NCBI GenBank assembly: GCA_963662715.1
Contig: OY759724.1
Coordinates: 780,001 to 812,000 of the forward strand
Direction: 5' to 3'
From: Candidatus Omnitrophota bacterium
GTDB taxonomy: Bacteria; Omnitrophota; Gorgyraeia; Zapsychrales; JANLHA01
DNA length: 32,000 nt
Part shown: positions 2,480 to 9,840 of the stretch, one piece after another
Numbering within the stretch: position 1 is the stretch's first letter
Layout: every line of letters begins with the position of its first letter
Position numbers and translations under genes: made by a program
Notes under the pieces: generated by a model
Database searches by the model: none
Told to the model about the DNA's origin: nothing
Seen by the model: the letters and a program-made list of their open reading frames with translations, nothing else

Positions 2480-2508
2480 CCTGTCCCTCTATCACCCTGT
2501 GGTCCTAT

Positions 2509-3330
2509 TTATTCAAACTTTTTTCTCCTTCTTAACACAGCCCCCCCAAGTAAACTGCCGCCTAATAAAAACAGCGTTGCCGGTTCCGGGACATGATTGC
2601 CATAAGCTTTAAGATTTAACTCGTCATTCCCGCATTTCATGGTCCAGTGAATCCAAGCGACGGAATCCTCTGAATCATATAAATCCATATCTAAAAGCGC
2701 CAAAGGGATCCGGGCTTCCATGACATAATGGGAATTCTGTTCTCCGCTGTAGACAAAATCAGCCCCTAAATCAGTAACAGCGACATTATCGCCGGTTACA
2801 TCCCCGGAGGCATCCCTTGCAATCCGCCAGGGATCAGCACTGGAATGCTGACTGTATTGCACGTTATCCCAGCTGGAAACAGAGTATAATGTCGAGGAAG
2901 TCACATCAATGGCATAGCTCTGCGCGCCGGGAGCATAAGATAAAAACGGATTGTCTATTGACCCGATTTCGATAAAAATATCTCCTGCCGGATACGATGT
3001 CCCAGTTGCCGGTAATCCGGTAATAACCGCGATATAGAGATAATCGGCATCATTATCAAAATAAATCGCTTCGGCATCATAAGTGTTCCCTGTCGTGTAG
3101 CCGGGACCCACATAGGTGTTGTTGGGAGAATTCACATCGGCATTGTCTTCTGTTAAGACATCAATATTATAACCCCCCGTTGGCAGGTGCGTATCCAAGT
3201 AACCCTGATTTGTGGCCTGGGAAAGATCAATACCCCAATCATCAACATTGCCGTCAATGACATAAAAGGCTTGTGCTAAAGATACCGGGAAAAGCAGGAA
3301 AAGAAATAAAAAAATTGTAATTTTTTTCAT
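2509..3330 (-). CDS. PEP-CTERM sorting-domain secreted protein
   Basis: Signal peptide MKKITIFLFLFLLFPVSLAQA. C-terminus VPEPATLFLLGGSLLGGAVLRRRKKFE is the PEP motif, a hydrophobic helix and a basic tail. SD GAGGTGA lies 4 nt upstream of the ATG. Confidence 0.85.
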   Translation of the reverse strand: MKKITIFLFLFLLFPVSLAQAFYVIDGNVDDWGIDLSQATNQGYLDTHLPTGGYNIDVLTEDNADVNSPNNTYVGPGYTTGNTYDAEAIYFDNDADYLYIAVITGLPATGTSYPAGDIFIEIGSIDNPFLSYAPGAQSYAIDVTSSTLYSVSSWDNVQYSQHSSADPWRIARDASGDVTGDNVAVTDLGADFVYSGEQNSHYVMEARIPLALLDMDLYDSEDSVAWIHWTMKCGNDELNLKAYGNHVPEPATLFLLGGSLLGGAVLRRRKKFE

Positions 3331-3362
3331 AATATCACCTCACGTTTTTTACAAATTAACAG

Positions 3363-3378
3363 AGCAAATATTATGCCA
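3363..3378 (-). promoter_or_regulatory. Sigma-54 (-24/-12) promoter upstream of the PEP-CTERM gene
   Basis: Minus strand reads TGGCATAATATTTGCT, i.e. TGGCAt-N5-TTGCt with canonical GG-to-GC spacing. It lies 33 nt upstream of the ATG at 3330, leaving a roughly 20-nt leader that contains the SD. Confidence 0.55.
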
Positions 3379-3549
3379 TTTTTAAACACCAAGTATTACA
3401 AAAAATTATTATTCATAAATGATTATTATTAAAAAGCTTGAGTTGTATATATTTAGAACATATGCTCAAAATAACAAAAAGTATCATCCTTTCCTGGCAA
3501 AAAAAGAAATACTGAAGAATTTTTTAAAAATGTTGATTTTTTTAAACGT

Positions 3550-3870
3550 TCAGAAAAGACTGCCGGAGGGATGGGAGGAAAAACAATAAATTTTCAGAAG
3601 AAAAAGCAATAAAACAGCTTGAAAAATTATGATAAGCATAAAAACTATTTTAAATGGACCTTTTATAGTTTTATGACGAAAAACGTTTTGCCCCGCTAAA
3701 GCCGCAGGACTCCCCCCCAAAAAAGCCAATATATGCAAAGCCTTTTCACTGACACGGAACCATCTTCTGACAGCCGCAAGCTTATCATATCCATAACACA
3801 TAAATGTTATCAAGTTTAAACCAATAAGATAGTAAATAATATATTCCATAATAATATTTAACGGCGGCAC
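3550..3870 (-). CDS. DUF1294 family small membrane protein
   Basis: Motif YGYDKLAAVRRWFRVSEKALHILAFLGGSPAALAGQNVFRHKTIKGPF matches the remembered DUF1294 pattern (DK..A...R.PE..L..LAL.GG..GA....FRHKT.K..F). The start is GTG at 3870; an alternative ATG is at 3849. Confidence 0.75.
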   Translation of the reverse strand: MPPLNIIMEYIIYYLIGLNLITFMCYGYDKLAAVRRWFRVSEKALHILAFLGGSPAALAGQNVFRHKTIKGPFKIVFMLIIIFQAVLLLFLLKIYCFSSHPSGSLF

Positions 3871-3947
3871 AATCCGCGCATCTATTTTTCTTTAAAAAAA
3901 CGGCAGGCCTTAGGATCACAGGAACATGCGCCGGGGATTATATGTCT

Positions 3948-4901
3948 CTATTGTTTTGCCAGGAGCTGCCGGGTTATATCGACCGCTGATTTCAGCACAT
4001 ACTCCGCAGCACGTCTGTTGGTATGATACCCTGATGTCCTTGTTGTTCTTTGCCGGATCACCAAAACAGTAACGTCATTCTCGGATTTATGCTCCAGGGT
4101 GAGTCCCCGGGGGGGATTCCGGATATGGTCCTTCATGTCATGAAAAAACCGGGAGGACTTTGCGATAAGCACACAATACAAATACGGATAATCGGTGCCC
4201 TGAACGGTGTTCATGGAAATCTGAACCTGCAGCCCTAAGAATTCTTTCGGCGCAGGGAAAAATCTCAACATAAGCCGGGCATCCGTAGGGACCTTTTTGC
4301 CCTCTTTTGTCCTCCGGGTCGCCAGCATCGGCAGAACCTGCACGTCACTGGGCGCAGATAAAAACCGCATCATACCTTCCAATAATTTTACTTTTATAAT
4401 CAGCCGGTCCTTTTTCAAAAAATCCCGGACCCCGACAAACCAATGCGGGGCAAAAACCACGGCCGAATCCCACGCCCAATAGCCTGCCAGGACCTCATTT
4501 CCCTGCATCACAAAATGGAACCAGACAGCAGCACAGCCCAACGCACATCCCGCGAAACAGGCAACGCCCAAGGGATTCGTGATATCGAAACAATCCAGGT
4601 CCCACTGCTGCAGTTGTTTTTGTTTAAGCTGAATCTTTTGATATTCATCCGGCGTGACCTGGGACCAGTCCTCCGGCCCCCTGACCGATGGACGGGCCGA
4701 ATAGCCTTTGATCAGAGTCAGCCCTGTCGCAAAGGCCAGAAACGCCAGACCCAGCCAGAAATTGATAAACAGCTGCGCCGTAAGTCCCAGCCCGAAAAGC
4801 GCCAAAACAATCTTTATGCGCAATAAATAAGGCCAGCTTTTTGCGAAAAGAAAATGGATATCCCCCTGTCGCTGAGGATCAGGAAAAAGTTTCACGAACA
4901 A
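3948..4901 (-). CDS. Uncharacterised multi-pass membrane protein with a soluble C-terminal domain, translationally coupled to the radical SAM gene
   Basis: 317-aa ORF with hydrophobic segments (IVLALFGLGLTAQLFINFWLGLAFLAFATGLTLI, PLGVACFAGCALGCAAVWFHFVM, AGYWAWDSAVVFAPHWFVGV). I recognise no family. The track start is TTG at 4901. A GTG at 4895 overlaps the rSAM stop as GTGA, with GGAGG 7 nt upstream, and is the more likely start. Confidence 0.7.
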   Translation of the reverse strand: MFVKLFPDPQRQGDIHFLFAKSWPYLLRIKIVLALFGLGLTAQLFINFWLGLAFLAFATGLTLIKGYSARPSVRGPEDWSQVTPDEYQKIQLKQKQLQQWDLDCFDITNPLGVACFAGCALGCAAVWFHFVMQGNEVLAGYWAWDSAVVFAPHWFVGVRDFLKKDRLIIKVKLLEGMMRFLSAPSDVQVLPMLATRRTKEGKKVPTDARLMLRFFPAPKEFLGLQVQISMNTVQGTDYPYLYCVLIAKSSRFFHDMKDHIRNPPRGLTLEHKSENDVTVLVIRQRTTRTSGYHTNRRAAEYVLKSAVDITRQLLAKQ

Positions 4902-6223
4902 ACCTCCGTCGCTAAAGGTTCCAAAAGCTCCTGATAGCCGACCTGCCGCCAGTATAAGGGACAGCCTCCGTTACAGACAGCCAGATCCCGGCAACCCTGA
5001 CACCGTTCATGGGCGAAACGCTTCTGCTGGAAATACTGAAAAGGCGGACTGCTCCAGAAGGTCTTAAACCGCCCCTTCATCTCTAAAATATTCCCCATCG
5101 GCTGAGGATAGCTGGAACAGGGCAGAATATCTCCGTTAGGCGCGACACTCAATAATCCGTCACAGGCGGCACAGCCTCTGTTGCCCAGACCGTGGACAAT
5201 GGGATTAAAAATGCATAAAGGGGTCGGAGAATACCACATGAATTCTAGCCCCATCTCTTGGGCTTTTTTCTGTACGGATAAAACCGTGTCGCCGATCTCC
5301 GAGTAAGTCACAAGAATATCCGGCAAATTCAAAACCGCGGCCCCTTCCGGCATCAGCATATTCATGGAAAATTTATCTACGCCCAAACTCTTCACCAGAG
5401 GAAGGATGGCCAATAAGCTCCCTTTATTCAAGGCAGAAACCGTTGTATTCGTATGCACCCGTATCCCCGCCTCTTTCAAATTTTTGAAACCGGACAGGCT
5501 TTTATGAAAAGCCCCTTCGCTCTGCACGATCTTATCGTGTAAGACCGCGTCCCCGGCCTCCAGGCTCACCTGGGCAGAATCAAGGCCCGCTTCTTTGTAG
5601 CGGGAAGCCTGATCCTGGGTTATCAACGTTCCGTTGGTGATGAGGTTCGTCCACATCTTCAGCGATTTCGCATAAGAAATCAGCTCCGGCAGGTCCGGCC
5701 TGAGTGTCGGCTCGCCGCCGGTAAAACTCACGGAAGGGACTTCGGCTTCCTGTCTGATGATCGCAAGTATCTCCTTAATCTGCTCCGTATCGTGCTCCCG
5801 GGACCCGGAGTCTTTACGGCATCCGCACGACGCATAACAAAACCGGCAGGACAAGTTGCACCTATAGGTCACGGCGATTTCGCTCAGCACCGGAAGAGTG
5901 TTAAAAGGGAGCTGAAAGGGATATTGTTCCACCGCCTTCCGCTCGCCCTGCTCATGGTAGCATCCTTTTAATAAAGCCAGCAGGTCGCAAAAGAAAAAAT
6001 GCAAATCCCGGGACACCCGCTCCCTGTCGGGATAACGGTTAATAATCGTATAAATACTTTCTCCTGACAGAAGAGCTTTTAATACTCTGACCCCGGACTC
6101 ATTGATTTTATGCGCTTCATTGGGAATCTTGATGAGAAGATTGTCGTACTCCCGGACATGAATATACGGGGCCACCCCCTTTATATACTGATCAACCCAT
6201 TGGATATGCGAATAATAATCCAT
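4892..6223 (-). CDS. Radical SAM/SPASM-domain peptide or protein maturase with an N-terminal PqqD-like RRE domain
   Basis: The CNLSCRFC (CX3CX2C) motif is at 5837-5860, and GGEPTLRPDLPELI follows. SPASM signature: GCAACDGLLSVAPNGDILPC, then CQGCRDLAVCNGGC (CX2CX5CX3C) at 4961-5002. The N-terminal ~95 aa (KINESGVRVLKALLSGESIYTIINRY...VSRDLHFFFCDLLALL) resembles PqqD/RRE. I place the start at ATG 6223 (MDYYSHIQW), 14 nt after the upstream stop. The track start at 6331 reads through the upstream gene's repeat in another frame. Confidence 0.9.
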   Translation of the reverse strand: MDYYSHIQWVDQYIKGVAPYIHVREYDNLLIKIPNEAHKINESGVRVLKALLSGESIYTIINRYPDRERVSRDLHFFFCDLLALLKGCYHEQGERKAVEQYPFQLPFNTLPVLSEIAVTYRCNLSCRFCYASCGCRKDSGSREHDTEQIKEILAIIRQEAEVPSVSFTGGEPTLRPDLPELISYAKSLKMWTNLITNGTLITQDQASRYKEAGLDSAQVSLEAGDAVLHDKIVQSEGAFHKSLSGFKNLKEAGIRVHTNTTVSALNKGSLLAILPLVKSLGVDKFSMNMLMPEGAAVLNLPDILVTYSEIGDTVLSVQKKAQEMGLEFMWYSPTPLCIFNPIVHGLGNRGCAACDGLLSVAPNGDILPCSSYPQPMGNILEMKGRFKTFWSSPPFQYFQQKRFAHERCQGCRDLAVCNGGCPLYWRQVGYQELLEPLATEVCS

Positions 6224-6237
6224 CTCGTTCCCTGCTG

Positions 6238-7920
6238 TTAGTGTCCGCTGCTGACACAAGCGCCGTGACAGGCGCCATGGCATGCGGAATGACATGCCGA
6301 ATGGCATGCGGAATGACACGCCGAATGACATGCGTCATGACAGACATTCTGCAAAAACGGCCCTTCATAACAGACGGCCGTATTCCGGAAGGAGGAGAAG
6401 CCTTCCTTCACCTGCGGCAGACTTTGTTCAAACGAACGTCCGACGTCCTGGCTGTTTCGGTAATAATCCCGGTCATGATAATAGGGACGGCCGTGATAAT
6501 GGTCGTAATATCCGTCCCAATAATGACTGTGATCTGTCTCTTGACGGGAAAGGCTTTTTTCTCTCTCCAGATCTTTCTGCATCCGCTTCTTATAATAAGC
6601 CTTCGTGGCTTCCAGGTCGCAGTCCCAGGCCTTTTGTTCAACTCCGGCGGCTATCGTGTGAAACAGATCATTCACATATGACTGCGGAATATCCCCATAC
6701 ATATCTATGGCCGTAAAAAGGTTGTTCTCATAAGGGTCTTCACTGCCGGTCGCCGCCGGGACCCGTTCGAGCTTTAAGGGATCACGGCTGATGACATGAA
6801 TCAGCCCTTTCCGTTCCAGGTTCTGAATCATGAGCCCCGCCAAAGTCCCCAAGGGAAGATCTAAGAGCAACCCGGCTTCAATGGGCGTCAGGGTCTTACA
6901 GATTTTCCCTTTCTTGCGAAATGATCCCAGCTGGATTTTGGGAGGGGTCCATTCCTCTCCATCCCATTTGATAGGATCAATACCGTCCTGGGCCGCCAGC
7001 ATGGAAATATGTTTCCGCGTCATAATCAAGAAAGGGACCCCCATCAGGACCACCACGGACAAAAGAATAAAAGATATAAGCCCTCCAAAAGACAGCGGCA
7101 CAACCGACAGAACACTGCCGGGGAAGAAGCGGTTAAGAATGTATTTTTCTTCGGCCTTTTGGAATCCCGGTGTTTCGGCCCAGGGCCGGGCCGGGGCCAT
7201 TGTCTGCAGATTAAAATAGGACGCATCCAGATACGTTTGTATCTGGAAATGATACCGTTTTTGAAGGTTATTCCGGTGGAAACGGACGGTCAGGACATTC
7301 TCTCCGCTGGCATTCTCTGCGGTCGGGTAGTCGATAGAGTACTCTCGGTTGACATATTTTTCCGTCATGAATTTCAGAGACGACAAAAGATCGGACGTGA
7401 CTTCTGAGCCGGTCAAGACAACAGGGTAATGGACCGTCACGGTTTGGTGATCCAGGGCATCGCTCCACTGCACCGGCGCCCAGTTCAAAACAGCCAGCCG
7501 GCCGTGATCACTCTCTGTTTGGGTGACATTCCCGCTCTGCTGCAGATCCGTTTCGTAGTGAAAAAAGTACGTGATGTCCCCGTCATGGAAAGCCTGCCCG
7601 TTGGCGAGGATGATATCATATTTGCCGGGGGAAAGGTATTTGATCTCTAAAGGGTACTGCCTGCCGGACTGATCAACGGCAAAAGCCTCATCATAATTAA
7701 AGCGGGGTGTCCCGGCAAAACCTTCGAAATAAAAACCGTGAAGATTGGCGGAGTGGCAGGACCAGCGTACAGCGTAGGCCACCTGCGCTTTGCCGTCCTG
7801 GTCCAGGACCAGGTCAACCTCAGCCCAGCGCATTTGAAAATGACCGGCCCATAGCGGTGAGGCAAACACGCACAGGGAAAGAACAACGAGGAAAGAAAAT
7901 AATATTTTTTTTCTAAACAT
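6238..7920 (-). CDS. DUF2207-like membrane protein (signal peptide, extracytoplasmic domain, TM region, cytoplasmic domain) ending in an (A-C-H-x)n Cys/His repeat tail
   Basis: Signal peptide MFRKKILFSFLVVLSLCVFASPLWA. N-domain motifs (LVLDQDGKAQVAYAVRW...LHGFYFEGF) and the post-TM LTPIEAGLLLD...LERKGLIHV resemble DUF2207, from memory. Hydrophobic stretch at about 7021-7128. C-terminus reads ...NVCHDACHSACHSACHSACHSACHGACHGACVSSGH. I prefer the start at ATG 7920 over the track start at 7950, because the -10 box at 7952-7957 would put the TSS downstream of 7950. Confidence 0.85.
   Translation of the reverse strand: MFRKKILFSFLVVLSLCVFASPLWAGHFQMRWAEVDLVLDQDGKAQVAYAVRWSCHSANLHGFYFEGFAGTPRFNYDEAFAVDQSGRQYPLEIKYLSPGKYDIILANGQAFHDGDITYFFHYETDLQQSGNVTQTESDHGRLAVLNWAPVQWSDALDHQTVTVHYPVVLTGSEVTSDLLSSLKFMTEKYVNREYSIDYPTAENASGENVLTVRFHRNNLQKRYHFQIQTYLDASYFNLQTMAPARPWAETPGFQKAEEKYILNRFFPGSVLSVVPLSFGGLISFILLSVVVLMGVPFLIMTRKHISMLAAQDGIDPIKWDGEEWTPPKIQLGSFRKKGKICKTLTPIEAGLLLDLPLGTLAGLMIQNLERKGLIHVISRDPLKLERVPAATGSEDPYENNLFTAIDMYGDIPQSYVNDLFHTIAAGVEQKAWDCDLEATKAYYKKRMQKDLEREKSLSRQETDHSHYWDGYYDHYHGRPYYHDRDYYRNSQDVGRSFEQSLPQVKEGFSSFRNTAVCYEGPFLQNVCHDACHSACHSACHSACHSACHGACHGACVSSGH
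6256..6342 (-). repeat. Coding tandem repeat: seven CHxA tetrapeptide units plus a terminal Cys (12-nt period; two 24-nt copies 23/24 identical at 6279-6326)
   Basis: Minus-strand codons: tgt cat gac gca / tgt cat tcg gcg / tgt cat tcc gca / tgc cat tcg gca / tgt cat tcc gca / tgc cat ggc gcc / tgt cac ggc gct / tgt. Confidence 0.95.
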
Positions 7921-7951
7921 GGGGCTTGCGTCTCGTTTTGACAATGTCATT

Positions 7952-7980
7952 ATTATACCGGCCCCGCCTTTCCGTGTCTA
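7952..7980 (-). promoter_or_regulatory. Sigma-70-like promoter of the ACHX-tail / rSAM operon
   Basis: Minus strand reads TAGACA (7980-7975), a 17-nt spacer, then TATAAT (7957-7952). Confidence 0.45.
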
Positions 7981-8052
7981 GCAGTCATCCCAAAACCTGT
8001 GCGGGACCGGCCCAAGCCCGGGAAGACAGAATAAAACCCCGGCCGCTATGTC

Positions 8053-8081
8053 TTTTCAATTTGTTATTTCGTTGTTATAAT
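8053..8081 (+). promoter_or_regulatory. Sigma-70-like promoter of the divergent B12-rSAM / GT-C operon
   Basis: TTTTCA (8053-8058), a 17-nt spacer, then TATAAT (8076-8081). Implies a ~160-nt leader before the ATG at 8248. Confidence 0.4.
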
Positions 8082-8247
8082 ACAAGTTCACAACCGAAAT
8101 ACAACCGTTTCTCGCGCAAAGCATCCTGGCTCAAAAATCAGCCTGATATCATCAACCGAACACATTCCGGGACCTTTGCGTTCCTCGACAGAGAATCTTA
8201 AAACTTCCTTTGGGTTTAGGAAGAATAATGACAACACCGGACAGACC

Positions 8248-9840
8248 ATGAAAATCACTTTCGTTGCCCTGGGCTGGGAACAACTCAGCATCTCCCTTCT
8301 TTCCGCTATCCTCCGGCGGGATGGACATCAAGTCCAGCTGGCTTACAGCCCCGGATTGTTTCATGACCGCTATAATCTGCATATCCCTCTCCTGGCCTCC
8401 CTTTTTAACGACCGCAAGAATGTCTTAAAAACCATTGAGAAGCAAAGACCGGATGTCCTGGCTTTCTCGGCCATGACCGGAACTTTTCAATGGATGCTGG
8501 ATATCGCGCAGGAAGCCAAACAATTCTTACCGGACGTAAAAGTGGTTTTCGGCGGCGTGCACACCTCCGCTGTCCCCGATCATGTCTTAAAACAAACACC
8601 CGTAGATTATGTTTGTGTCGGCGAAGGGGACGTCGCTTTCCGGCTCATCCTGCAGTCTATAGCCCGGGAGGATTTCACCTCCCCGATCCCCAATACCCGA
8701 TACAAATCAGCGGACGGCACCGTCATTCAGGGACCGCAGAACAGCTTCATTCAGGATTTAGACAGCCTGCCGATCTTCGACAAATCCATCTGGGAAGACC
8801 ATATCCGGCTGGGCGACATCTATTTCACAATGGCCTCCCGGGGCTGTCCTTTCCGCTGTACGTATTGTTTTAACAGTTTTTTCGCCAAGTTAGCCGATCA
8901 AAGGGAAGGGAAATACGTCCGGCAAAGAAGCGTCGACCATATGATGAACGAACTGCTTTATGCCAAAAGCCGGTACCGGTTAAAGCTGGTGGAATTCGAA
9001 GATGACATATTTACTTTCAATAAAAAATGGCTCAAAGATTTCTTGTACCAATACAGGAAAGACATCCGTATCCCCTTCCAATGCCTTTCCCACCCGTCTT
9101 TCATGGACGAAGAGGTCGTGCGGTGGCTGGCGGAGGCAGGCTGTCAGTTTGTCCAGATGGGCATTCAAAGCATGGACGAGGCCTTTAAAAACCGTATGAT
9201 AAAACGGTATGAAAAAACGCATCAGGTCGAAACTGTCATGAAAATCATGCGGAAATATCATGTTGATCTGAAAGTTGACCATATGTTTGGCCTGCCCGGA
9301 GAGCCTTTATCCGCCCAGGAAACCGCCAGGAAACTTTATACCAAACACCCGCCTTACAGGATACAGACCTTCTGGATGAACTACTTTCCCGGGACGGAAA
9401 TTGTCCAACAGTCTTTGGCTGACGGGACATTGAAACCCGAAGACCTCCGGGATCTTCAGGACGGGAAAAACATTGATTTCTACCGTGACAGCTCCAAGAC
9501 CGTTGATCCGGGGATAAAAAAAGTTTACCGGGCCTATGAAACAATTTTTAAACTTATTCCGATACTTCCACCTCCTCTCAAACAACGCCTCAATCCCCGG
9601 TTTTTCACAAAACTGCCCCAATGCCTTAATGAATGGATCAGCTTTGCTACTGATGTTATAAACGGATTGTGGCGAAGAAATCCTGACCACATCGGTTATG
9701 CTAAATACTATCTTTATCATATGTCCCGCTTTTTGCTTTTGAAATTGGGCCAAAAAGCCCTGCCCGCCACACGACCCCGAGAGAAGAAAAACGTCCCTGA
9801 TATGCTGGCCAATACCCGGCTTACAGAAAAACCGGTATAA
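8248..9840 (+). CDS. B12-binding-domain radical SAM protein (class B rSAM)
   Basis: N-terminal cobalamin-binding-type domain (VLAFSAMTGTFQWMLDIAQEAK...VVFGGVHTSAVPDHVL...DYVCVGEGDVAF), followed by ASRGCPFRCTYCFN (CX3CX2C). The start is moved to MKITFVALG at 8248. Confidence 0.85.
   Translation: MKITFVALGWEQLSISLLSAILRRDGHQVQLAYSPGLFHDRYNLHIPLLASLFNDRKNVLKTIEKQRPDVLAFSAMTGTFQWMLDIAQEAKQFLPDVKVVFGGVHTSAVPDHVLKQTPVDYVCVGEGDVAFRLILQSIAREDFTSPIPNTRYKSADGTVIQGPQNSFIQDLDSLPIFDKSIWEDHIRLGDIYFTMASRGCPFRCTYCFNSFFAKLADQREGKYVRQRSVDHMMNELLYAKSRYRLKLVEFEDDIFTFNKKWLKDFLYQYRKDIRIPFQCLSHPSFMDEEVVRWLAEAGCQFVQMGIQSMDEAFKNRMIKRYEKTHQVETVMKIMRKYHVDLKVDHMFGLPGEPLSAQETARKLYTKHPPYRIQTFWMNYFPGTEIVQQSLADGTLKPEDLRDLQDGKNIDFYRDSSKTVDPGIKKVYRAYETIFKLIPILPPPLKQRLNPRFFTKLPQCLNEWISFATDVINGLWRRNPDHIGYAKYYLYHMSRFLLLKLGQKALPATRPREKKNVPDMLANTRLTEKPV

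Follow-up and report, generated by a model that had tools for sequence, protein, structure and literature searches.

Radical S-adenosylmethionine (rSAM) enzymes that carry a SPASM domain together with a docking domain are known almost only for acting on small, variable, exported peptides or for making diffusible cofactors. Here we describe a locus whose rSAM enzyme seems instead to be dedicated to one protein tail. It lies in a 32,000-nt stretch of DNA from a Candidatus Omnitrophota bacterium (OY759724.1 positions 780,001 to 812,000; "the window", whose positions serve as coordinates below) and encodes p1, a 560-aa membrane protein ending in an A-C-H-x repeat, p2, an rSAM/SPASM enzyme, and p3, a second membrane protein. 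With moderate confidence we favor the reading that these genes form a conserved, vertically maintained module in which p2 modifies the (A-C-H-x)n-ACVSxGH tail of p1 post-translationally.

The closest described systems are the maturases of ranthipeptides, sactipeptides and SCIFF peptides (PapB/PapA, CteB, SkfB and AlbA-type), in which, as proposed here, an rSAM/SPASM enzyme with a PqqD-like domain (assigned for p2 at the level of its family) is encoded beside a substrate rich in Cys. The action of PapB on six in-line Cys-X3-Asp/Glu motifs (PMC9413430) is a precedent for repeated modification of short units. The substrates of these enzymes are short free peptides, whereas the candidate substrate here is the tail of a 560-aa membrane protein, its unit is A-C-H-x with an invariant His and no fixed Asp/Glu acceptor, and its sequence is near-invariant across phyla, with no linked protease or exporter. 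More generally, the stand-alone precursor with leader and core on which maturases of ribosomally made, post-translationally modified peptides (RiPPs) that depend on an RRE (RiPP precursor recognition element) act was absent from all loci examined, the repeat being the p1 C-terminus. A Cys at every fourth residue, as in the p1 tail, is also found in the CXXX-repeat (TIGR04117/TIGR04115) and ACGX-repeat (TIGR04340) systems, whose targets are stand-alone small proteins. TIGR04117 matched the tails, and the tails only, of 7 of 14 p1 relatives at 10-15.5 bits (cut-off 50) and did not match the window p1.

Two further comparisons concern the mode of action. TvgB, a second precedent for repeated action, works on repeated TVGG motifs, and the TvgB/TvgA system (cyclopropylglycine synthase) resembles what is proposed for p2 in that an RRE-rSAM-SPASM enzyme modifies one residue per tandem four-residue repeat. 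TvgA, however, is a short peptide, and the chemistry is C-C bond formation on Val and not on Cys. The similarity to p2 of TvgB, identified as PDB 8vpo through PMC10878394, is weak (54.9 bits). In QhpD/QhpC and anSME/sulfatase, SPASM rSAM enzymes yield a working protein subunit instead of a natural product for secretion; QhpD introduces several Cys thioethers into a single polypeptide. Here, there is no amine dehydrogenase or sulfatase context, and the substrate would be a repeat tail on a membrane protein.

The membrane protein itself is laid out like DUF2207 (PF09972)/TIGR04222 proteins, with a beta-rich N-domain that is exported, a transmembrane (TM) region, and then a cytoplasmic part and a C-terminus of low complexity. 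Canonical DUF2207 tails are Gly-rich and are not Cys-His repeats. The canonical genes also pair with LemA (PMC12631010), whereas p1 pairs with an rSAM gene. The literature searched held no paper with the tail motif, none linking DUF2207 to an rSAM enzyme and nothing relevant on CXXX or ACGX repeats; the mention of DUF2207 in a thiohistidine paper concerns a coincidental neighborhood dismissed by its authors. The original prediction, made from the letters of the window, had not recognized the A-C-H-x tail as a described family, and we likewise found none in the libraries or the literature searched. The p1-p2 system resembles ranthipeptide, sactipeptide, SCIFF and CXXX-repeat maturation in function, and QhpD/QhpC in that its product would be a protein, but by sequence membership it falls into none of these systems. 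Its enzymology is probably familiar in type; what is new is the invariant membrane-protein tail as a substrate class, the Cys-His unit and the breadth across uncultured phyla.

The three genes correspond to closely spaced minus-strand open reading frames (ORFs; 6238..7950, 4892..6331 and 3948..4901 in the ORF listing). As had been predicted, they are packed behind one promoter-like site:

7952..7980, minus strand: sigma-70-type promoter-like site, TAGACA-17-TATAAT, the top match (11/12) in 3300..8300
6238..7920, minus strand: p1, 560-aa tail-bearing membrane protein (ORF; alternative upstream ATG at 7950; AlphaFold2 (AF2) predicted local distance difference test (pLDDT) score 78)
6343..6399, minus strand: p1 pre-tail motif FSSFRNTAVCYEGPFLQNV, residues 508-526, candidate docking (leader-like) element
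6241..6342, minus strand: p1 C-terminal tail CHD-(ACHS)4-(ACHG)2-ACVSSGH, residues 527-560, presumed rSAM substrate (ORF)
4892..6223, minus strand: p2, 443-aa radical SAM/SPASM enzyme (Pfam Radical_SAM 3e-29, SPASM 3e-08)
3948..4895, minus strand: p3, 315-aa membrane protein (GTG start; AF2 pLDDT 83)

The ATG at 7950 is an unlikely start for p1 because it lies only 2 nt past the -10 hexamer, and the ATG at 7920 is favored. The p2 ATG at 6223 follows the p1 stop TAA by 14 nt, and alignment with 19 homologues supports the start MDYY. At its longest, the p2 ORF (4892-6331, 479 aa) begins within the p1 tail but in a different frame, so that the 36 residues at its start (MSFGVSFRMPFGMSFRMP...) are the repeat read out of frame; gene callers could mis-start p2 there, and the homologues back the ATG at 6223. 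The p3 GTG at 4895 overlaps the p2 stop TGA (4894..4892) as GTGA, with GGAGG 7 nt upstream, and p3 read from this GTG is identical to the database protein P0139. This overlap had been predicted together with a length of 317 aa; the overlap stands, while the length is a count from the TTG at 4901, two codons upstream, and the GTG gives 315 aa.

Conservation and linkage of the p1 tail

The last 34 residues of p1 had been described as an ACHX-type repeat, and they consist of seven CHxA units followed by ACVSSGH. The underlying DNA has a 12-nt period with 6.4 copies and 76% matches (Tandem Repeats Finder, TRF); with so few matches, the repeat is evidently maintained as protein sequence and does not stem from recent duplication of the DNA. 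Residue-identical tails differ at ~50% of codons, with Ser encoded by both AGC and TCN codons. Chance or artefact as the source of the repeat can be excluded, given that the sequence is conserved across phyla while the codons diverge.

The tail was present at the C-terminus of all 76 intact p1 orthologues of the genome set, with six to eight ACHx units in 73 of them. Ala and His are invariant in the units, so that a His stands beside every Cys, while x is Ser (375 cases), Asp (84) or Gly (71); in the Omnitrophota and Elusimicrobia tails its identity is position-specific, with D first, S in the middle and G last. The tails end in ACVSSGH (35 orthologues), ACVSGGAH (18) or close variants. Across 66 aligned full-length p1 sequences, the mean pairwise column identity of the tail was 0.93, compared with 0.21-0.55 elsewhere in the protein; the beta-sandwich had 0.49, the winged helix 0.44 and the linker preceding the pre-tail motif 0.21. 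The tail is the most strongly constrained segment of p1 and is under extreme purifying selection. Judged from these alignments, the constraint is the opposite of that on RiPP antibiotics and is typical of a cofactor-like or structural element. Pre-tail residues 511-526 showed a column identity of 0.46 versus 0.21 for the preceding linker, and the motif has clade-specific variants (CYEGPF, ACHSACYVHT and CFEGCF).

A scan with one genome per species gave 477 genomes with a p2 relative, and neighborhoods were counted for the best 80. The p2 homologues in these 80 genomes have 48-74% identity to p2 and fall under ~12 phylum labels. The metagenome-assembled genomes (MAGs) are labeled Omnitrophota, Elusimicrobiota, Planctomycetota, Armatimonadota, Sumerlaeota, Hydrogenedentota, Nitrospiraceae, Kiritimatiellae, Victivallis, Bacteroidales, Firestonebacteria, Auribacterota, Spirochaetes and FCB group. 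The best 120 rSAM homologues (59-74% identity) come from Omnitrophota, Elusimicrobia, Spirochaetes, Firestonebacteria and others, and the nearest relatives of the window enzyme are from Omnitrophota MAGs (73-74%). The order p1, p2, p3 on one strand was found in every one of the 80 loci with enough flank, the three loci without p1 being cut by a contig end. When flanking ORFs were clustered, only three genes were shared across the neighborhoods (in 80, 79 and 76 of the 80 loci), and p3 lay downstream of p2 in 79 of the 80. This survey, proposed along with the original prediction, thus found the rSAM homologues together with tailed p1 and p3. The closest homologues of p2 all sit in a p1-p2-p3 cassette. 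No protease, exporter, tetrapyrrole or pqq genes were conserved in the 80 neighborhoods.

These observations bear on the idea that p1 is an oversized RiPP precursor whose tail is cleaved off as a peptide natural product. An RRE-rSAM-SPASM enzyme beside a Cys-repeat core is the architecture of a RiPP cluster, and large leader domains occur in some RiPP classes. We nevertheless consider this very improbable: no protease or exporter is conserved, p3 lacks invariant peptidase-like Cys, His or Ser residues, the core is near-invariant across phyla, and the rest of p1 is conserved and folded.

The tail was also used as the starting point of a search, in which metagenome contigs were scanned for a degenerate DNA pattern encoding five ACHx units. 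Of the more than 120 stretches returned, 80 were examined, and 68 of these encode a family-type tail; each such ORF of at least 400 aa matches a profile hidden Markov model (HMM) of tail-less p1. Every metagenome ORF positive for the p1 HMM was tailed so that, together with the 76 genome orthologues, no p1 with an intact C-terminus was seen to lack the tail. An rSAM gene lay downstream in 46 of the 47 loci with at least 1.5 kb of sequence, and p3 in 28 of the 33 with at least 2.8 kb. Five divergent loci (L088, L092, L124, L135 and L142) keep p1 and p2 without p3. In one of them (L088:6486-11176), p1 is 673 aa long with extra hydrophobic segments and a tail that begins (ACHS)7, its stop is immediately followed by the ATG of p2, and the place of p3 is taken by a gene for a 412-aa protein with a coiled coil and a zinc ribbon. 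Since the divergent loci keep p1 and p2, these two genes are the core and p3 is a frequent accessory; of the coupling of three genes that had been predicted, the p1-p2 part therefore stands, while p3 is not a universal partner.

Most of the other stretches held simple repeats of unrelated kinds (ACHP, ACHR, ACHI and so on). Among the metagenome stretches examined, none encoded a stand-alone ACHS peptide; one candidate (L116) proved to be a PVTQ repeat of a phage-like protein in another frame. A further contig (JACCDQ011219294.1, L114:635-5229) carries a 144-aa signal-peptide protein (2506-2940, minus strand) that ends in an ACHx repeat and is flanked by three rSAM/SPASM genes unrelated to p2 and by a 226-aa unknown protein. 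The best NCBIfam matches of these rSAM genes are DynA, anSME and AmcB, far below the cut-offs, leaving the genes unclassified. By its gene content this locus, a single case, independently places an ACHx repeat beside SPASM enzymes, and it may represent a second ACHx-repeat maturation system.

Beyond the three shared genes, the next-commonest neighbors in the 80 loci are lineage-restricted: an ACT-domain protein (24 loci), a NifU-like protein (23) and a NifS-like protein (17). In the loci inspected, the genes for the NifU-like and NifS-like (cysteine desulfurase) proteins follow p3 directly in Elusimicrobia (L001:8764-10945, and ~17-23 loci among L005-L084) and not in other phyla; they could reflect lineage synteny or the supply of Fe-S clusters to the system. 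In one Omnitrophota lineage, a Bat-like (aerotolerance-type) operon (VWA, TPR, BatD, TPR/SH3) directly precedes the cassette on the same strand (L003:1-4333), but it is not among the recurrent neighbors in the 80 loci.

The p2 enzyme and its possible substrates

The p2 protein exceeds the Pfam cut-offs for both of its catalytic regions (PF04055, 102.8 bits versus 29.5; PF13186, 34.2 bits versus 21.5) and has the following parts:

5939..6175, minus strand: N-terminal PqqD-like (RRE-like) domain, ~residues 17-95 (PF05402, family level)
5837..5860, minus strand: CX3CX2C cluster motif CNLSCRFC (C122, C126, C129), invariant in 20 family members
4961..5215, minus strand: SPASM region with eight invariant Cys (C337, C351, C354, C369, C408, C411, C417, C421; Pfam and alignment)

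The segment CQGCRDLAVCNGGC (C408-C421) fits CX2CX5CX3C, and this motif, the CX3CX2C motif and the 14-nt spacing from p1 are all as first described. Beside the rSAM motif, C133 is also invariant and C135 nearly so among the 20 family members. PF05402 matches 11 of these 20 members (best E 1.5e-6), and it is at the level of the family that the N-domain can be assigned as a putative RRE. By profile, the nearest solved relatives of p2 are SkfB (2.6e-24), PqqE, SuiB, CteB and TvgB (8vpo). The p2 family profile aligns to 8vpo over residues 41-421 and, as the alignment starts at residue 41, includes part of the p2 N-domain.

The additional cysteines of p2 and the NifU/NifS neighbors could fit a tail that serves as an Fe-S or sulfur scaffold or donor for p2 rather than as a cross-linked substrate, a sacrificial or carrier role like that of the auxiliary clusters in rSAM enzymes that insert sulfur. 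The tail does offer at least eight regularly spaced Cys, and the NifU/NifS-like genes are found downstream in 17-23 Elusimicrobia loci. We judge this improbable, in that the NifU/NifS linkage is confined to one lineage, SPASM enzymes have auxiliary clusters of their own, no other part of the cassette resembles an acceptor substrate, and a membrane-anchored 560-aa protein with an exported domain would be an odd cluster carrier.

Comparison with the NCBIfam rSAM-SPASM subfamilies, the check suggested with the original prediction, gave no model that reaches its cut-off on p2. Among the 25 best matches, of which the weakest scored 73.7 bits, were NirJ2 (142 bits, cut-off 500), AhbD (136, 500), PqqE (122, 381), GeoRSP (110, 400) and the ACGX model TIGR04340 (85.7, 400). 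The models for heme d1, heme b and pyrroloquinoline quinone (PQQ) enzymes (NirJ, NirJ2, AhbC/D and PqqE) scored 100-142 bits against cut-offs of 381-650, so far under these cut-offs that p2 is not a member of the heme or PQQ families. Not among the 25 best matches were the PapB and SCIFF maturase models, the CXXX maturase TIGR04115 (cut-off 350 bits) and the QhpD model; the match to anSME in the PDB covers the core only (1e-11).

The main rival explanation starts from the same matches. It holds that the tail stays unmodified and binds a metal (Zn, Ni, Cu or Fe) or senses redox state, that p2 acts on a small molecule or tetrapyrrole-like cofactor, and that p1 and p3 are partners or regulators. 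Cys/His-rich terminal tails are common as metal sites in metallochaperones and transporters. The His beside every Cys is invariant, as expected of ligands, and the best NCBIfam matches of p2 are NirJ2, AhbD, NirJ and PqqE. However, at 122-142 bits these matches fall short of their cut-offs (381-515), the neighborhoods contain no conserved tetrapyrrole or PQQ genes, and the p2 family has a PqqD-like peptide-docking domain. Metal-binding tails also usually vary in length and sequence, whereas this one combines an identity of 0.93 with a fixed four-residue register across phyla. In addition, the tail is linked to an rSAM gene in 46 of 47 metagenome loci, and the ACHx protein of L114 again lies among rSAM/SPASM genes. 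Taken together, we regard an unmodified metal tail as unlikely, and the tail of p1 as a likely substrate of p2 on the strength of the sequence comparisons.

Topology of p1 and the accessory protein p3

The position of the tail relative to the membrane was considered using an AF2 model of p1 built on a 14-sequence alignment (mean pLDDT 78), in which the following parts were distinguished:

7846..7920, minus strand: signal peptide or anchor helix, residues 1-25 (AF2 helix 2-23; MFRKKILFSFLVVLSLCVFASPLWA has the n-h-c layout of a Sec signal by inspection)
7225..7842, minus strand: extracytoplasmic beta-sandwich, residues 27-232 (pLDDT mostly >90)
6979..7089, minus strand: single TM helix, residues 278-314 (one continuous AF2 helix)
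6421..6885, minus strand: cytoplasmic winged-helix-like module and helical bundle, residues 346-500 (AF2 H-H-E-E, then helices)

In Foldseek searches, the beta-sandwich resembled the N-domain of M1 aminopeptidases and the luminal domain of ribophorin I/OST1 (E ~1e-7). The central hydrophobic stretch, 33 residues long in the window p1, is ~20-22 residues in the divergent orthologues P0132, P0133 and P0136; it is therefore likely to form one span, being too short there for a hairpin. An exported N-domain followed by one TM span places the C-terminal half of p1, including the tail, in the cytoplasm, and we predict this location from the model. The tail had been put on the cytoplasmic side from the outset, with a reservation about the 33-residue stretch that is resolved by the shorter stretch in orthologues, in line with the modeled signal helix and single TM helix. 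None of the outcomes named beforehand as computational grounds for rejecting the prediction (rSAM homologues consistently of cofactor or heme type, p1 orthologues without the tail, a periplasmic tail) was thus observed. Heme attachment through the overlapping CX3CH motifs was considered and rejected, as the tail is on the cytoplasmic side and no cytochrome c maturation genes are linked.

After the TM helix, the AF2 model has a winged-helix-like unit at residues 346-386 and then a helical bundle to ~residue 500. TIGR04222 matched the equivalent region of P0133 (residues 323-412) at 23.8 bits, below its cut-off of 43; no relative exceeded that cut-off, and the window p1 gave no match. The Pfam DUF2207 (PF09972) N-domain was found in 10 of 14 p1 relatives (best E 7.1e-6) but not in the window p1 at E up to 1. 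The label "DUF2207-like" first given to p1 thus holds at the level of the family and not for the window's own protein, for which NCBIfam and Pfam scans gave no family reaching its cut-off. Before the pre-tail motif, residues ~471-500 (6421-6510) form a Tyr/His/Asp/Arg-rich stretch, HYWDGYYDHYHGRPYYHDRDYYRNS, whose composition is conserved but which is poorly alignable across orthologues.

In its AF2 model, p3 has two TM hairpins (23-60 and 108-153), giving four TM segments, and an alpha/beta domain made up of the loop between the hairpins and the C-terminal 150 residues. Scans of Pfam and NCBIfam placed p3 in no family, and Foldseek of the model against the PDB gave nothing below E = 0.04; a YbjN or type III chaperone-like fold, with a TM-score of up to 0.46 on the target, was too weak a match to name the fold. 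The family alignment contains no invariant Cys or His, and no invariant Ser that would suggest a peptidase. In a profile search of 1.84 billion representatives, the p3 family comprised 496 clusters at 50% identity, all of ~310-350 aa. Distant representatives still follow an rSAM gene, and one such locus has a p1 with the tail (ACHS)7ACVSGGAH. An invariant W-D-x-D motif occurs both in p1 (KAWDCDLEATK, residues 430-440, 6598-6630) and in p3 (QQWDLDCFDIT, residues 96-106, 4578-4610). Kinship of the two proteins was not supported, as hhalign paired only six W-D-x-D columns with a probability of 0.3%, and the shared motif may be coincidence.

Three genes adjoin the cassette in the window. A 554-aa B12-binding radical SAM protein (8176-9840, plus strand) is encoded divergently from the cassette promoter region, an adjacency that is not conserved in other genomes. 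Just downstream of p3, and outside the conserved module, are genes for a DUF1294 membrane protein (106 aa; 3550-3870, minus strand) and a PEP-CTERM-anchored secreted protein (273 aa; 2509-3330, minus strand).

A proposed model for tail maturation

We propose the following sequence of events. By prediction, p1 sits in the membrane with the beta-sandwich facing the periplasm and the C-terminal half on the cytoplasmic side. The PqqD-like domain of p2 would dock beside the repeats, probably on the pre-tail motif, and the enzyme would then work along the six to eight units, using a 5'-deoxyadenosyl radical and its auxiliary clusters to turn one Cys per unit into a cross-link. By analogy with known enzymes, a Cys-derived cross-link as the modification is a tentative suggestion. 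Its likeliest form would be an in-line Cys thioether of the kind made by sactipeptide and ranthipeptide synthases, a first guess made because Cys-rich SPASM substrates usually end as thioethers. A Cys-His link could also be envisaged, although no precedent for one made by an rSAM enzyme was found in the literature searched. An acceptor in the side chain of x is disfavored, since this residue may be Ser, Asp or Gly.

The modified product probably stays part of p1, given that no protease or exporter is conserved and that the whole of p1 is. It would then form a rigid ladder on p1, not exported, that displays His and thioether groups for binding metals, redox partners or other proteins. Candidate roles for the matured tail include metal binding, redox sensing and service as a docking site for p3 or other partners. 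In most lineages p3 would act as an accessory membrane partner that may tether the enzyme, or the tail once matured, to the membrane, and it would be dispensable in some clades.

Several points weigh against this proposal. The case for modification rests on genomic association and on the class of the enzyme, and a Cys/His-rich tail of a membrane protein could bind metal unmodified. The best NCBIfam matches of p2, though far below the cut-offs, are tetrapyrrole and PQQ enzymes. The PqqD-like RRE first attributed to p2 holds for 11 of the 20 family members but not for the window protein itself, whose own PF05402 match (residues 35-81) is not significant (E = 0.26, 12.1 bits versus a cut-off of 23.4). 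Likewise, a profile of the p2 N-domain only, run against PDB sequences, retrieved no solved RRE and only chance matches (HIV protease, E = 0.004; TfuB1, E = 2). The count of Lys and Arg on either side of the p1 TM helix is not decisive, which is why the topology argument rests on the signal peptide and the single TM helix. With a pLDDT below 50, the AF2 model gives no structural hint of how the tail is presented. Finally, the extreme conservation of the substrate is unlike that of RiPP natural products, which makes the analogy to sactipeptides looser.

A more speculative extension, which we consider unlikely, is that p2 turns the Cys-His ladder into a protein-embedded cofactor. Such a cofactor could be a series of Cys-His sites or of imidazoles bridged by thioethers, holding a row of metals or relaying electrons at the cytoplasmic end of p1, whose periplasmic beta-sandwich would sense or bind an external ligand. 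If true, such a ladder would be an unknown class of radical-SAM-made cofactor, widespread in uncultured phyla and comparable in kind to PQQ, mycofactocin and the cross-links of quinohemoprotein amine dehydrogenase (QHNDH), but kept on a membrane protein.

Two essential genes and a substrate of ~50 residues make this a small system, and it is preserved as a unit across hundreds of mostly uncultured species of Omnitrophota, Elusimicrobiota, Armatimonadota, Planctomycetota, Hydrogenedentota, Nitrospirota and other groups. If p2 does modify the p1 tail, RiPP-type chemistry would extend to the tails of full-size membrane proteins, and the product would probably be a novel cross-link, metal site or redox site. 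It would also open, for the first time, a route to the function of the very large class of DUF2207-like membrane proteins that have unusual tails at their C-termini.

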